Below are positions 40,009-47,780 of a DNA stretch of 64,000 nucleotides, one piece after another (positions within the stretch are counted from its first letter, which is position 1; each line of letters opens with the position of its first letter). The notes beneath the pieces are model-generated. The model ran no database searches. It had not been told where the DNA came from and saw only the letters and a program-made list of their open reading frames with translations. The stretch is from the NCBI GenBank assembly GCA_039028615.1, contig JBCCHT010000018.1, positions 64,001 to 128,000 on the forward strand, in the 5' to 3' direction. A program made the position numbers and the translations under genes. This DNA is from Myxococcota bacterium (lineage in GTDB: Bacteria; Myxococcota_A; Polyangia; Nannocystales; Nannocystaceae).

Positions 40009-41268
40009 ATGGCCGATGAACTGCGCGCTCGCATCGATGCACGACTCGATCGGTACCCGGGCGACATCATGCCGTTCGCTCCGTACATGCCGGTGCCGGC
40101 TCCCTTGCACTCGTTCGAGGAGCACAAGGCCATCGCGATCCGCGAGATGAACGAGCGGCTCGCCGCGGCCAAGGCCTCGATTCGCACGCCGCCCGATCCT
40201 TCGCTCATCTCCATCAAGTCCTGGCAGTTCGGCTTCACGGGCAGTGAGTCCGACGACGCGGCCACTCGGAGCGCACGTGATGGGCTGTACCTGCGCCTGC
40301 AGTCTCATCGTGGTGACTACGTCTCGTCGGAGCAGTGGCGTGGGTTCTTCGAGGCCATCGACAATCCAAAGCGGTGGGTCGAGTTCGGCGAGGCGGCCGA
40401 AGCCGAAGGGTGGACTGTCGAGGCCAACGCATGTTTCGCGGCTGCCCGCTGGCTCGATCCCGGTGTCGAGGAGCGCATCGCGACGGCGATCGCCGGGCGT
40501 TCGAACGATGCTCTCCCCGCTCGCCTCGTCCGTCAGCCCGACGCGGGCCTCGCCACGCAGCCCTTCATGCAGCGTCACTGGCTGGCTTGGGACATGAAGA
40601 ACTACGGGCGCCTCGATCTCCCCACGCTCATGCGCTGGGCCTGCGATCCCAACTTCTCTGTGCGTGCCCGGATCTATCGTTCGCTCGGTCAACGCCCGCA
40701 TCCCGCATCGATCCAGACGCTGCACGAGGGGCGCTTCGATCCCCATCCCTTTGCTCGCGCCCAAGCCCTACGTTCGCTCGGCTGGTGTGCCGACCCGACC
40801 GCGCTCGAGTTCCTGCGTACGATGGCGGCGTCCGATCCCGACGCAGAGGTCCGTCGCACCGCGGCCAAGGCCGCCCAGCGCATCGAGGGGTATTGGTGGT
40901 TCTACGGCGAGTGGAATGCGATCGCGGGGTCTGCGGAGCGCATGCTCGAGGTTGCCCGGTTCCTCGTCGACAAAGGCTTGCCCGCGTTCGTGTACAACAT
41001 CGTGGTCCTGTGCGATCGGGGCGACGACGGTGCGCTCGGTGAGCTCGTCGATTCGATCGAAGCCGACGCCCTCGAGCGCGACCGCGAGGACGAAGAACTC
41101 TACGCGCGCTCGCAGTACCACCACTGGTTTTCCGAGGCCCAAGAGCACGAGGCTCGGCGAGACTCACTCACCGATGAGGAGGCCCGGTCCGACGCGCGCC
41201 AGCCGGGAGCGGCGGGATTCGAGGGTCGGCGCACTCTCCGTCATCGCGGGCTGGCCGTCCCCTCATGA
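40009..41268 (+). CDS. HEAT-repeat-containing protein
   Basis: Three HEAT-like units: 'DPNFSVRARIYRSLG', 'DPHPFARAQALRSLG', 'DPDAEVRRTAAKA'. Confidence 0.7.
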   Translation: MADELRARIDARLDRYPGDIMPFAPYMPVPAPLHSFEEHKAIAIREMNERLAAAKASIRTPPDPSLISIKSWQFGFTGSESDDAATRSARDGLYLRLQSHRGDYVSSEQWRGFFEAIDNPKRWVEFGEAAEAEGWTVEANACFAAARWLDPGVEERIATAIAGRSNDALPARLVRQPDAGLATQPFMQRHWLAWDMKNYGRLDLPTLMRWACDPNFSVRARIYRSLGQRPHPASIQTLHEGRFDPHPFARAQALRSLGWCADPTALEFLRTMAASDPDAEVRRTAAKAAQRIEGYWWFYGEWNAIAGSAERMLEVARFLVDKGLPAFVYNIVVLCDRGDDGALGELVDSIEADALERDREDEELYARSQYHHWFSEAQEHEARRDSLTDEEARSDARQPGAAGFEGRRTLRHRGLAVPS

Positions 41269-41369: not shown

Positions 41370-41404
41370 AAAAAAACCCTTGGCACCGGGGGAGGTACCA
41401 AGGG
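41370..41404 (-). terminator. Rho-independent terminator of the candidate sRNA
   Basis: Minus strand CCCUUGGUACC-UCCCCC-GGUGCCAAGGG-UUUUUUU (11-bp stem, U7). Confidence 0.85.
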
Positions 41405-41533
41405 AAGGGGTCGGGGTGTTCCCTACAAGGCAGAGAGAGTTGGGCCCGCTGTCGGGGGAGACTGAGAGCCCACCGCCTCGTGGAAATCGTTGTCTTGCGT
41501 CGTTCGCTACCGTTCGTCCCTCGCCAGGGACAG
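41370..41533 (-). ncRNA. Candidate sigma54-dependent small RNA (~165 nt) with C-rich loops
   Basis: Bounded by a -24/-12 promoter and an intrinsic terminator; several hairpins whose G.U pairs form only on the minus strand; two UCCCCC loops; no credible ORF. Confidence 0.7.
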
Positions 41534-41543
41534 CCCCTTAGAA

Positions 41544-41559
41544 TGCGAGCGGTGTGCCA
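41544..41559 (-). promoter_or_regulatory. Sigma54 (-24/-12) promoter
   Basis: Minus strand TGGCACACCGCTCGCA has exact GG-N10-GC spacing and a perfect TGGCAC. Confidence 0.75.
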
Positions 41560-41649
41560 CGGGGTGCACGCGCCTGGCATTCTTTTAAAGTGTTTTGAGA
41601 TCAAAGAGATGCTTGGGGCTCGGCGGAACCATGACCGGGGGCCACAGCC

Positions 41650-41733
41650 GTCAATCCGATGACAAACCGACGGAGGTTCGACGGCTTGTCAGAAACTTGA
41701 CGCCGGATGTCGGGAAATCGTCGACACTTTGAC
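41650..41733. promoter_or_regulatory. Three palindromic GTCA-N6-TGAC boxes (putative enhancer-binding-protein sites)
   Basis: GTCAatccgaTGAC 41650-41663; GTCAgaaactTGAC 41688-41701; GTCGacacttTGAC 41720-41733. Confidence 0.6.
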
Positions 41734-42050
41734 GGCTAGGGGGAAACCTGGTGTGAAGTTCAATACCGCCCTCCCTTGCATCCAGCTCAACGTTCGGGCC
41801 GAACCGATTGAATTAGGGCGAGAAGGCTCGAATTCGATCGGTTCGGGCGCCGGCGACATTCGCGATCGACGGAAGAGATCGTCGGGCCGGTCCGGCCGTT
41901 GGCAGGGCAAGACGCCACCTTGCCATGTCGAACACGCATACCGCGCCAACCTACTGGGGGGGCCCGACCGTGGGTCCGACCCCGAACTGGGCGGACTCCG
42001 CTCTCGCCGTCGTCCGAGGAACGGCGGCCTCTCCCCGCTGTCTAGCTCAC

Positions 42051-42704
42051 GTGATGCGCACTCCAGAACAGGACGAAGCTCGCAGCGACGAGTCCCTCAT
42101 GGAGGCGTTTCGCCTCGGCGATGCCGACGCCTTCGAGGTGCTCGTCACACGCCATAGCCGCGGGCTGTACAACTTCTTGCTGCGGAGCGTCCATTCGCCT
42201 GCCCGCGCCGAGGAGCTGCTGCAGGACGTGTTGTTCCGAGTGATCCGCTCCAAGGACCGCTACATGCGTTCGGCCCGGTTCACCACCTGGGTCTATACGA
42301 TTGCGCGTAACCTGTGCGTGGACGAAAGCCGTCGCGCCCGGTTCCGCGATCACGAGTCGCTCGATGCGCCGCTGCGCGGCCGCAAGGCGCACGAGAGTTC
42401 TTCGAACATGCTGTCGACCTTGGCCAGCACCACCCCTTCGCCCGACCTGGGCGCGGACAGCCCTCGCCTGCGGGAGCGGCTCAACCGCGCCGTGCATCGG
42501 CTGCCGGTCGATCAGCGCGAGGTCTTTGTGATGCGGCTGATGGCGGGTATGTCCTTCCGAGAGATCGGCGAGACGGTGGGCGCCCCCGAAAATACGGTGA
42601 AGAGCCGCATGCGTTATGCGCTCGACAAGCTCCGCGACGAGCTGGCCGACCTGCGTCACGCGGTATGCTCGGTAGTGTCCGAGGAAAGCCTCGCCCATGG
42701 CTGA
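42051..42704 (+). CDS. ECF sigma factor
   Basis: 'SDESLM..GDADAFEVLV', 'AEELLQD', 'FTTWVYTIARNLCVD', 'LP.DQREVF', 'TVKSRMRYAL'. Start could be 41925. Confidence 0.92.
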   Translation: MMRTPEQDEARSDESLMEAFRLGDADAFEVLVTRHSRGLYNFLLRSVHSPARAEELLQDVLFRVIRSKDRYMRSARFTTWVYTIARNLCVDESRRARFRDHESLDAPLRGRKAHESSSNMLSTLASTTPSPDLGADSPRLRERLNRAVHRLPVDQREVFVMRLMAGMSFREIGETVGAPENTVKSRMRYALDKLRDELADLRHAVCSVVSEESLAHG

Positions 42705-43806
42705 GTGGAGTCCCGCGCAGCTCGATCGCCTCGAGGATGCCCTCGAGGAACTCGAGCAGGAGGGTGGCCTCGAGCGTTGGCTCGAGGACGAGCCCGGCGT
42801 GGGCGATCCTCTGCGGGAGCGGCTGACGGACTATCGCGACATCCTGGTGGCCAGCCGCGAGGCGCTGCCCATGGAAGAGGTGCCGTCGGGCTTGCTCGAT
42901 GGAGTGTTCGAAGAGGCGCGACGCGCCGCGGCCACGCCCGCGGTGGCGGCGGCCAAGGAACCCTGGTGGCGGCGCCTGCGACGGAGCTTCTTGGTGCCCA
43001 CCGTGGCCCTAGCCGGCACGGCGGCGCTGGTGTTTTGGATCGGTCGCCCCGAGAGCCAGCCCACGAGCGCGGACATGCCTTCACCCGAGTCGGCCGAGGC
43101 CGCCGCGGCGCAGCCCGTCGAGCGAGCCGAGAAGACGCGCAAGCGAGGCGATCGGGCGGTCGCACCCGCCGATGCCGAAGGCGACGCCGAGCAGAGCCTC
43201 GAAGAAGAAGAGCAGGCCAAGGCCGAAGCCGAGCCGGACGAGCCGCCGCCGCCGCCCGCCGCCGTTCCGCAGTCGGCCGCGCCCACCCGCGCCCAGACCT
43301 ACGACGAAGGCGAGCTCGGGGTGAAGATCGACGGCAAGCTCGACGACGCCAAGGGAGCCGACACCGACAAGACGGGCAAGGTCCTCGGCGGCGTGCCGAC
43401 GGAGCCCGAGGTCGTGCCCGGCTCGGGCTCGGCGGGTCGCTGGGACTTGATCACTGCGGGCGATCAGGCGCGGCAGGCCGGCGACTGCGTGGGCGCGCGG
43501 CAGAGCTACGCGGTCGCGCTCGAGGACGATGAAGCCGCCGTACGGGCGCGGGCCTACGCGGGCATGGGCCTATGCGATGCCCAGCAGGGCAACTCCGCCG
43601 CCGCCGATTCGAACTACGAGCGGGCGCGGGAGCTCGACGGTGCATCCATCGACGACTTCCTCGACTCGCAGCGCGATCACGGTCCGCCCAAGACGAGTCG
43701 GCCCAAGCGCAGCAAGAAGAAGAAGGCCAAGCCTCGCTCGAAGTCGAGTTCGTCCAAGACGAACAAGGCGATCAACATGGACCAGATGAGCGACCCCTTC
43801 GGCTGA
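42697..43806 (+). CDS. Putative transmembrane anti-sigma factor with C-terminal TPR-like region
   Basis: Overlaps the ECF stop; N-terminal helical domain, 'PWWRRL' plus TM helix, low-complexity linker, TPR-like C-terminus. Confidence 0.68.
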   Translation: MAEWSPAQLDRLEDALEELEQEGGLERWLEDEPGVGDPLRERLTDYRDILVASREALPMEEVPSGLLDGVFEEARRAAATPAVAAAKEPWWRRLRRSFLVPTVALAGTAALVFWIGRPESQPTSADMPSPESAEAAAAQPVERAEKTRKRGDRAVAPADAEGDAEQSLEEEEQAKAEAEPDEPPPPPAAVPQSAAPTRAQTYDEGELGVKIDGKLDDAKGADTDKTGKVLGGVPTEPEVVPGSGSAGRWDLITAGDQARQAGDCVGARQSYAVALEDDEAAVRARAYAGMGLCDAQQGNSAAADSNYERARELDGASIDDFLDSQRDHGPPKTSRPKRSKKKKAKPRSKSSSSKTNKAINMDQMSDPFG

Positions 43807-46785: not shown

Positions 46786-46886
46786 GGGGCGGGTCTTTTC
46801 GCGGGATTCGGGCGGGGTTGGCGGGAGCTGGCCTCGCTCGAGTTGATTTTGGGGGTGGGTTTTTTGGCGCTTTGCGGACGGGTGGG

Positions 46887-47755
46887 TGCTTGGAGGGGGG
46901 TCGAGTTGGTTCGAGCGGAGGGCTCGCCTGTTGACGGCTGGAACCCTCCCCGGACGTGCTCGGCGGCCGTGGTAGCAGGGTGTTTCGCGAAGGCTGTACG
47001 GGGCCGCCTCCGCGCGACCGGGCCCCCTCCATCCTACGCGGCTTCGCTTCAGCCCTCCCCGCACTCGGTCTCGCGTTCGGAAAGTGGTGTGGGTCCTGCC
47101 CGATCGTAGGCAGATCCTCGAACGGGCGAGGGAGGGTTTAGCCTTCTGCGTACTTGGTCTCGAGTTCGAAGGGCGGTGTGGGTCTTGCTCGGTCGCAAGT
47201 AGACTTGCTTTGCGGTTGCTCGGTGGTGGTTGGGCGAAGGGGGCTTGCTTGGAGGGCGTTGTGGTTGGTTCGAGCGGAGGGCTCGCCTGTTGATGGCTGG
47301 AACCCTCCCCGGACGTGCTCGGCGGCCGTGGTAGCGGGGTGTTTCTCGGAGGCTGTACGGGGCCGCCTCCGCGCGACCGGGCCCCCTCCATCCTACGCGG
47401 CGTCGCTTCAGCCCTCCCCGCACTCGGTCTCCCGTTCGGAAAGTGGTGTGGGTCCTGCCCGATTGTAGGCAGATCCTCGAATGGGCAAGGGAGGGTTCAG
47501 CCTGCGCGTACTTGGTCTTCTGTTCGGATGGTGGTGTGGGTCCTGCCCGATTGTAGGCAGATCCTCGAATGGGCAAGGGAGGGTTCAGTCTGCGCGTACT
47601 TGGTCTTCTGTTCGGATGGTGGTGTGGGTCCTGCCCGATCGTGGGCAGGCTTCTGAACGGGCAGGGGGTTCAGCCATCGCGCACTCGGTCTCAATTGGAG
47701 CGGGGGGGGGGTGGGTTGTGCCTGATTGTGGGGGGTTCCCGAGTGGGCGCGGGTT
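46887..47755. repeat. Nested intergenic repeat: 359-bp direct duplication containing ~88-bp palindromic subunits
   Basis: Copies start at 46887 and 47246; subunits start at 47048, 47137 (degenerate), 47407, 47496, 47584 and 47669 (degenerate); the intact ones carry a gggtcCTGCC-cgatcgta-GGCAGatcc-type hairpin. Confidence 0.9.
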
Positions 47756-47780
47756 GGTGTCGCTATGTCGACGAGGGCGT

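Follow-up and report, generated by a model that had tools for sequence, protein, structure and literature searches.

On the minus strand of the window, i.e. the whole 64,000-nt stretch of DNA analysed here, we find at positions 41370–41533 an element that, judged from its sequence, is almost certainly a real gene and is predicted to be transcribed into a small RNA (sRNA) of ~164 nt. It represents an uncatalogued gene family of part of the Nannocystaceae and is an sRNA of the C-loop kind. The explanation that we favour, with moderate confidence, is a trans-acting C-loop sRNA that would belong to the regulon of a flagellar regulator resembling FgrM and FleQ.

The putative gene is preceded by a sigma54-type −24/−12 promoter motif, TGGCAC-N5-TCGCA (41544–41559, minus strand), which was read from the sequence and aligns in all five full-length copies of the genus found by BLAST, with varying spacer letters; its GG-N10-GC spacing places the transcription start (+1) at ~41533, and a sigma54 gene is found in the host genome. 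The predicted transcript consists, all on the minus strand, of a 5′ hairpin 1 (41516–41531; a short hairpin is present here in every genus, its sequence varying by genus), an A-rich linker that is mostly unpaired in the predicted fold (41487–41515), a hairpin 2 with a long bulged stem (41419–41486) for which fold and alignments reveal compensatory changes, a C-rich linker whose conservation is limited to the genus (41405–41418), and an intrinsic terminator (41370–41404) made up of a hairpin (41404–41377) with a second, genus-specific UCCCCC loop and of a U7 tract (41376–41370). The apex of hairpin 2, GUC-UCCCCC-GAC (41451–41462, loop 41459–41454), is the predicted seed. A first-pass annotation of this DNA had described the promoter, the 5′ hairpin, the long stem with its cap, the terminator and the U7 tract at these minus-strand positions, and all of them are present there. 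Its additional AGGGAA/UUCCCU element exists as letters but not as a conserved hairpin: in the predicted fold and the alignments the partner of the AGGGAA 5′ arm is the UUUCC at the foot of the long stem, and the UUCCCU 3′ arm overlaps the terminator. The minus strand folds with z = −2.28, better than 196 of 200 shuffles, and the opposite strand with z = +0.61. The four G·U wobbles previously taken as an argument for this strand all lie within the predicted fold, but the argument from strand stability is a local one and fails beyond the locus, because only 4 of 29 copies have a sense strand that is more stably folded than the antisense strand; the strand is set by promoter and terminator. In agreement with the earlier statement that there is no credible ORF, the window copy is devoid of an ATG ORF and no ORF is conserved across the 29 copies. 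A small peptide was rejected on these grounds: an AUG precedes the loop in 13/29 copies, with ORFs 11–81 long that show no coding signal. A leader or riboswitch was likewise rejected, as the gene that comes next is convergent, or the same strand shows no coding signal downstream; no gene lies behind the sRNA on its own strand. The sRNA gene is present as a single copy, with no paralogues in the window genome.

Searching all 73 genomes of the order with a pattern and a sequence-only profile, and checking weak matches by synteny, we found the sRNA in 30 genomes of the Nannocystaceae family, belonging to seven genera, in one copy each and adjoining the same ECF sigma gene. It is present in 6/6 genomes of the window's genus (g1), in 11/11 of g10, 7/8 of g15, 1/1 of g13, 2/3 of g8, 2/2 of g5 and 1/2 of g16; it was not found in g2 (5 genomes), g4 (7), g14 (11), g17 (11) and six single-genome genera. 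BLAST, which the first-pass annotation had named as a check in relatives, gave positive results for five of five genomes of the same genus and for none of 55 others. The copy of G003 is cut by a contig end, leaving 29 full copies for analysis. Weak profile matches in G033, G006 and five class-level genomes were discarded for want of an ECF neighbour, promoter or seed, and other weak profile matches (E > 0.009) were dropped uninspected; G024 was retained on synteny. In a class sample of 151 genomes there were five matches outside the family, all weak and without promoter, seed and neighbour. An exact pattern searched over 185,579 species genomes yielded 72 matches, 14 of which look real; these are titled Nannocystaceae, Nannocystales, Myxococcales, Myxococcota or Deltaproteobacteria MAGs, plus Paraliomyxa miuraensis SMH-27-4 (L053), whose copy has the twin-loop form seen in the window. 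The remaining 58 have no ECF neighbour and were taken as chance occurrences (seven were inspected). As the exact-pattern records come from the same kind of collection, they are left out of the count of 30 among 73. Rfam, Pxr included, returned five matches at the locus with E values of 0.9–7.1, all far below the cut-off, and none at 20 homologue loci. Our literature search, for which subscription literature was mostly outside reach, returned no paper on this sRNA or on flagellar clusters of Nannocystaceae. In G007, the syntenic position (L043:780–1040) carries a sigma54-like motif, after which come different hairpins and a short tandem repeat, but no C-loop; this element is possibly a replaced or decayed RNA gene.

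The structure is conserved beyond the window. In the alignment of the window's genus 99% of the cells are paired (32–52% in slid controls), a score favoured by the derivation of the genus structure from the same sequences, and 5 of 37 pairs have changed on both sides. For two other genera these numbers are 4/18 and 5/38; the stems covary in the alignments of all three genera. The 29 full copies, with 3′ ends placed by an automatic procedure that misses in a few cases, have a mean z of −3.2, with 25 of them below −1.5. Most constant is the central loop, (G/U)UC-UCCCCC-G(G/A)C, which is kept in 26/29 full copies and is unpaired with a probability >0.8 in 28/29. In 24 copies the sequence of the 12-base apical hairpin is GUCUCCCCCG(G/A)C, in 2 it is UUCUCCCCCGGC and in 3 a variant; the closing stem of 3 bp is fixed in sequence along with the loop. 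The loop count is partly circular, because the pattern searches required the loop, but the set found by synteny is free of that: in the search guided by the ECF gene, with no loop required, the sRNA was found at 14 of 30 loci and carried the same loop in 13. The 'twin UCCCCC loops' described before are a property of the window's genus (6/6), the only one to keep the loop in the terminator; other genera keep the central loop only. The earlier proposal of an undescribed sigma54-type sRNA gene that has a conserved, exposed C-rich loop and is analogous to Pxr is supported.

The gene is divergent, as had been noted, from an ECF sigma factor gene (41925–42704, plus strand; start at 41925 or 42054) and its partner, a possible anti-sigma factor (42697–43806, plus strand; a weak NCBIfam match below cut-off, E 5e-4, and no Pfam match). 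The ECF gene is preceded by the motif GATC-N16/17-CGTT(G) (41877–41901, plus strand), which probably is an ECF-type promoter and occurs in 13/17 RNA-bearing and 6/14 RNA-lacking ECF loci. Since the ECF gene has this motif of its own also in genomes lacking the RNA, the link between sRNA and ECF gene looks positional. On the other side, a HEAT-repeat gene (40009–41268, plus strand) is convergent with the sRNA; in most other genera mutM takes this place. The linkage of mutM and the ECF gene extends to other families of the class, and the window genome has a second, paralogous ECF sigma/anti-sigma-like pair without an sRNA (L192, G000:C65:29919–31650). Elsewhere in the window, at ~46790–47780, a long non-coding stretch after an acyl-CoA ligase gene contains blocks a few hundred bases in length that are repeated, as the duplicated text of overlapping ORF translations shows.

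Upstream of the sRNA promoter, a motif search places three predicted activator sites: CGTCA-N6-CGACG with one mismatch (41719–41734), CGTCA-N6-TGACA (41687–41702), the best-scoring site of the genome by a matrix trained partly on it, and TGTCA-N6-TGACG (41649–41664). The palindrome CGTCA-N6-TGACG is found 66–205 nt upstream of the sRNA promoter in each of the 28 loci with upstream DNA, and these 28 regions contain 65 sites compared with 2.3 in shuffles. Exact palindromes number 31 at a spacer of 6 and zero at spacers of 3–5 or 7–10. Among the 843 sigma54-like motifs in the genome, that of the sRNA is the only one with two or more sites upstream (again with the matrix trained partly on it), and the tandem-site pattern has matches in 17 of the 73 genomes, in nine of them at the sRNA locus. 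No palindrome is present in 39.6 kb of RNA-lacking ECF loci; this, together with the promoter-like motif that the ECF gene has in both groups, assigns the sites to the sRNA. Between the activator sites and the promoter there is an AT-rich stretch (41577–41612), the expected place for a DNA-bending protein like IHF. Two further occurrences are mentioned for completeness. A sigma54-like motif and a gene in L435 (1290–1560, G179:C12) are preceded, at ~150 nt, by tandem CGTCA-N6-TGACG-like sites; by eye the start of this gene is PAS-sensor-like, and it is a possible second target of the same activator. One palindrome-like site is found upstream of a degenerate sigma54-activator-like gene without GAFTGA (G000:C6:248971–249693, minus strand).

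The same palindrome leads to a candidate regulator. Of 27 sigma54 activators in this genome just one has it upstream, namely G000:C44:13647–15221, a protein with receiver, AAA+ and Fis helix-turn-helix domains. In 20/29 orthologues the palindrome overlaps TTGAC of the activator's own predicted −35, so that half of the palindrome is the −35 itself; its left half is found at 6 of 603 other upstream TTGAC. It is absent in 9/29 orthologues; within the window's genus, 4 of the 5 genomes that could be scored lack it. A repressor site over the gene's own −35 is the usual layout of self-repression. A strict first search found activator orthologues in at least 33 of the 73 genomes. Both genes occur together in 29 genomes, the sRNA only in 1, the activator only in 4 and neither in 39, i.e. 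5 genomes are discordant. Of the four activator-only genomes, one has a contig break just past a palindrome, one is without an ECF match, one has a paralogue-type ECF match only, and in G179 no sRNA is found at the ECF match. As a single clade (98/91 in the ECF tree) unites four of the seven genera, the 73 genomes are not independent and this is co-occurrence among kin. A deeper search in five RNA-lacking genomes came up empty in one and gave best matches of 45–47% in the remaining four, where the proteins found are orthologues of two other activators, and no match at E 1e-115 or better was found in 100 other genomes of the phylum. Two other core activators are present in RNA-lacking genera at 68–79% identity while the C44 activator is absent there, a control that compares just these two. 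In 25/26 orthologues in which the motif was read, GAFSGA replaces GAFTGA. On these sequence data, the C44 protein probably is the activator of the sRNA.

In six of six relatives (g10, g8, g5) a complete flagellar cluster of ~37 kb, spanning flgBC to csrA, fliW and flagellin and with sigma54 motifs inside, opens with the activator. In G019 (g15, L298) it is followed by flhG, fliA, csrA and fliW only, and in the window genome (L261:1385–3722, G000:C44) by csrA and fliW only; these gene orders suggest that the cluster decays stepwise, with activator-flhG-fliA-csrA-fliW left in one genus and activator-csrA-fliW in the window's genus. Thirty-nine cluster proteins compared with the window genome (96.7% complete) matched no flagellar structural gene, only weak paralogues. 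It would thus appear that the window genome lost its flagellar genes yet kept the activator, csrA-fliW and the sRNA. Flagellar FlhA is above cut-off in 22/73 genomes, 19 of them RNA-bearing, and in none of g1, g13, g2, g4, g14 and g17; in five g15 genomes a flagellar-type FlhA is encoded elsewhere. Strong palindromes number 21 in 247 kb of flagellar clusters vs 2 in 181 kb of other loci. There are 13 intergenic cluster palindromes vs 0.9 expected, five of the 13 being the activator's own promoter, and 24 in genes vs 11.8 after synonymous shuffling; most cluster palindromes are inside genes or off enhancer distance from sigma54 motifs, and some are on conserved codons. Nannocystaceae are regarded as gliders. 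Complete single-cluster flagellar systems are seen in uncultured members (L292–L297, L299–L300 and L302–L306 of G012, G014, G024, G034, G009 and G211), within which no motAB or fliD was recognised. FleQ (FleQ-FleN) is an enhancer-binding protein that depends on RpoN and is needed for flagella. The C44 activator resembles FleQ/FlrA and FgrM of Geobacter in its domains and gene context: it is an AAA+ sigma54 activator with a Fis-type DNA-binding domain, it is encoded with sigma54-promoter flagellar genes (in relatives), where it is the leading gene of the cluster, and in one genus flhG and fliA have stayed with it. It differs from them in the GAFSGA variant and in being kept in genomes without flagellar genes. 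FgrM is described, in the part of the source available to us, as an enhancer-binding protein dependent on RpoN and essential for flagella (PMC8844916). The evidence favours a flagellar-type activator instead of the link to starvation and development suggested in the first-pass annotation.

In the mechanism that we propose, the flagellar-master-type enhancer-binding protein would bind the upstream CGTCA-N6-TGACG sites, whereupon sigma54 would transcribe the sRNA, and it would repress its own gene from the site over its −35. The exposed UCCCCC loop of the sRNA would then pair with G-rich mRNA leaders and repress them without Hfq. In flagellated relatives the sRNA would serve as a post-transcriptional arm of the flagellar regulon; in the window genome it would have outlasted the flagellar genes together with the activator and csrA-fliW. 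Action by base-pairing is likely by analogy, as C/U-loop sRNAs work with just such a loop, C-rich, exposed and fixed on a stem that varies, and as the window genome uses GGAG-type Shine-Dalgarno (SD) sequences, has sigma54 and gave no match to Hfq; the same analogy suggests G-rich ribosome-binding sites as partners. According to the portions consulted, the C/U-loop sRNAs CJnc190 and RepG pair their loops with G-rich leaders (PMC8687705), and Pxr is described as pairing near SD sequences (bioRxiv 10.1101/2025.09.11.675593). With CJnc190 (Campylobacter) and RepG (Helicobacter) our sRNA shares a conserved single-stranded C-rich loop, but no sequence relation was seen, and RNase III processes CJnc190, for which an antisense partner exists. 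The loops of the UCCC-motif RNAs of Staphylococcus aureus (RsaE) and of cuckoo RNAs are C-rich and proposed as seeds as well; in contrast to them, the Nannocystaceae sRNA has no Rfam match, one family-wide loop instead of repeats, and predicted sigma54 control. Cuckoo RNAs are repeated hairpins with CCUCCUCCC loops, and a cuckoo identity was rejected for our sRNA on its loop (UCCCCC), the one family-wide copy and the lack of an Rfam match. Among the sRNAs of flagellar control are FlaX (Vibrio), FlmE/FlmR (Campylobacter) and UhpU/MotR/FliX/FlgO (E. coli), most of which derive from flagellar operons; the Nannocystaceae sRNA, in contrast, stands as a gene by itself at a distance from the cluster and has predicted enhancer sites of its own.

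None of the target searches found a site conserved across genera, though complementary sites exist. Of the 486 sites with GGGGGAGA in the window genome only 1 precedes a called start, the lowest of 28 permutations, and the duplex ranking covered 9,180 roughly called genes of one whole genome. Pattern counts in the 73 genomes gave no split between RNA-bearing and RNA-lacking genera, and among 30 of 78 candidate sites and 87 loci checked there were only two pairs of orthologues, both within one genus. In six flagellar clusters no flagellar gene pairs consistently with the sRNA, and an apparent excess of lipoprotein genes was dismissed as not significant (P 0.30). The loop is altered in three of the 29 copies, which we count against the favoured explanation.

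Several other explanations have to be weighed. The sRNA and its base-pairing might be as proposed while a different regulator, either another sigma54 activator or one of CRP/MrpC type, reads the palindrome, the flagellar link then reflecting shared ancestry. The motif given for the CRP-family protein MrpC in the part of the paper accessible to us is TGTYN8RAC (PMC4320627), and the palindrome contains GTC-N8-GAC, which fits its core; moreover, ~11 activators are common to G000, G012 and G029, and the kinship of the genomes weighs on the co-occurrence. However, the motif is rare genome-wide, with 95 strong sites of which 18 are intergenic, unlike what is expected of a global regulator, the upstream site is unique to the C44 activator, and the two other core activators, unlike this one, occur in RNA-lacking genera; we consider this alternative unlikely. 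The constant position of the sRNA, with a convergent gene on one side (mutM in most genera) and the ECF gene on the other, could be read as action in cis, the mutM-ECF sigma region being subject to interference or to antisense transcription. Yet there is no overlap with either gene, the window's genus has a different convergent partner, the ECF gene possesses a promoter-like motif of its own, and cis action would not fix the sequence of the loop, which makes this the least credible of all the alternatives.

Slightly less probable than a different regulator is a decoy function, in which the 12-base hairpin would bind a protein, CsrA being one candidate, or sponge an RNA instead of pairing with mRNA leaders. 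The fixation of the closing 3-bp stem along with the loop and the empty target searches are in line with this, and csrA-fliW directly follow the activator in the window's genus; CsrA is a candidate because csrA-fliW travel with the activator. For CsrA itself, the copies contain 0–5 GGA, nearly all of them paired, unlike CsrB/RsmZ, and csrA is found in 63/73 genomes, RNA-lacking genera included; a CsrB-type decoy role is therefore unlikely, and a CsrB/RsmY/RsmZ identity was rejected on the same GGA counts and the lack of an Rfam match. That the sRNA is a highly diverged homologue of Pxr (RF01812) gating development appears very improbable, in spite of a considerable likeness: both have a sigma54 promoter, a dedicated activator (a predicted one in the Nannocystaceae), three hairpins, a U-CCCCC apical loop on a long bulged stem and an Hfq-less host. 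Pxr, an sRNA of Myxococcus and relatives, blocks the development of fruiting bodies and occurs in long and short processed forms. In Pxr, according to the parts of the two reports available, a C-to-A change in the loop abolishes function (PMC5568312; PMC5684412). The loop of Pxr, UUCCCCCC, is however on hairpin 1 of three and that of the Nannocystaceae sRNA on hairpin 2, the lengths are 108 and ~140–165 nt, and pxrK-pxrR lie directly upstream of pxr where the Nannocystaceae sRNA has the divergent ECF gene instead. Five true pxr loci that we fetched scored 111–127 bits on the Pxr model; they have a sigma54 motif, kinase and activator genes directly upstream in the three with genes read, and by eye a TTTCA-N4-TG(A/C)AA repeat, and none has the CGTCA-N6-TGACG palindrome. 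The Pxr covariance model (membership at ≥80 bits) gave no match at the locus or in 20 homologue loci, its best score in the window genome being 26.9 bits and away from the sRNA; a scan of 121 phylum genomes with this model, also without a match, had no positive control and is set aside. Conversely, our family profile scores 5.4 bits at best on true pxr, under background. In the window genome PxrR is without a clear orthologue (best 45%), and the gene following pxr in L202 is without a match. Thus, the Nannocystaceae sRNA resembles Pxr but is not a member, with another activator motif and belonging to another family.

Returning to the C-loop sRNA under a flagellar-type activator, its significance lies in the comparison with Pxr, the sole regulatory sRNA that our literature search found characterised genetically in myxobacteria, and one confined to another branch. 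The present sRNA adds a second myxobacterial family, with promoter, predicted activator, binding site and predicted seed defined and with a cultured carrier, Paraliomyxa miuraensis SMH-27-4, and it suggests convergence on a design of sigma54 and C-loop in Hfq-less bacteria. More speculatively, and in our view doubtfully, the Nannocystaceae could have been ancestrally flagellated, and gliding lineages, that of the window genome among them, could have kept the top of the flagellar cascade (activator, sRNA and CsrA-FliW) rewired as a lifestyle switch, a second and independent Pxr-like checkpoint from a dead flagellar regulon. The tie of the sRNA to complete flagellar gene clusters in uncultured Nannocystaceae makes the role of a flagellar regulator after the loss of flagella testable. 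What surprises most is the likely place of this sRNA under a flagellar master activator, and the likely survival of both after the flagellar genes were lost.
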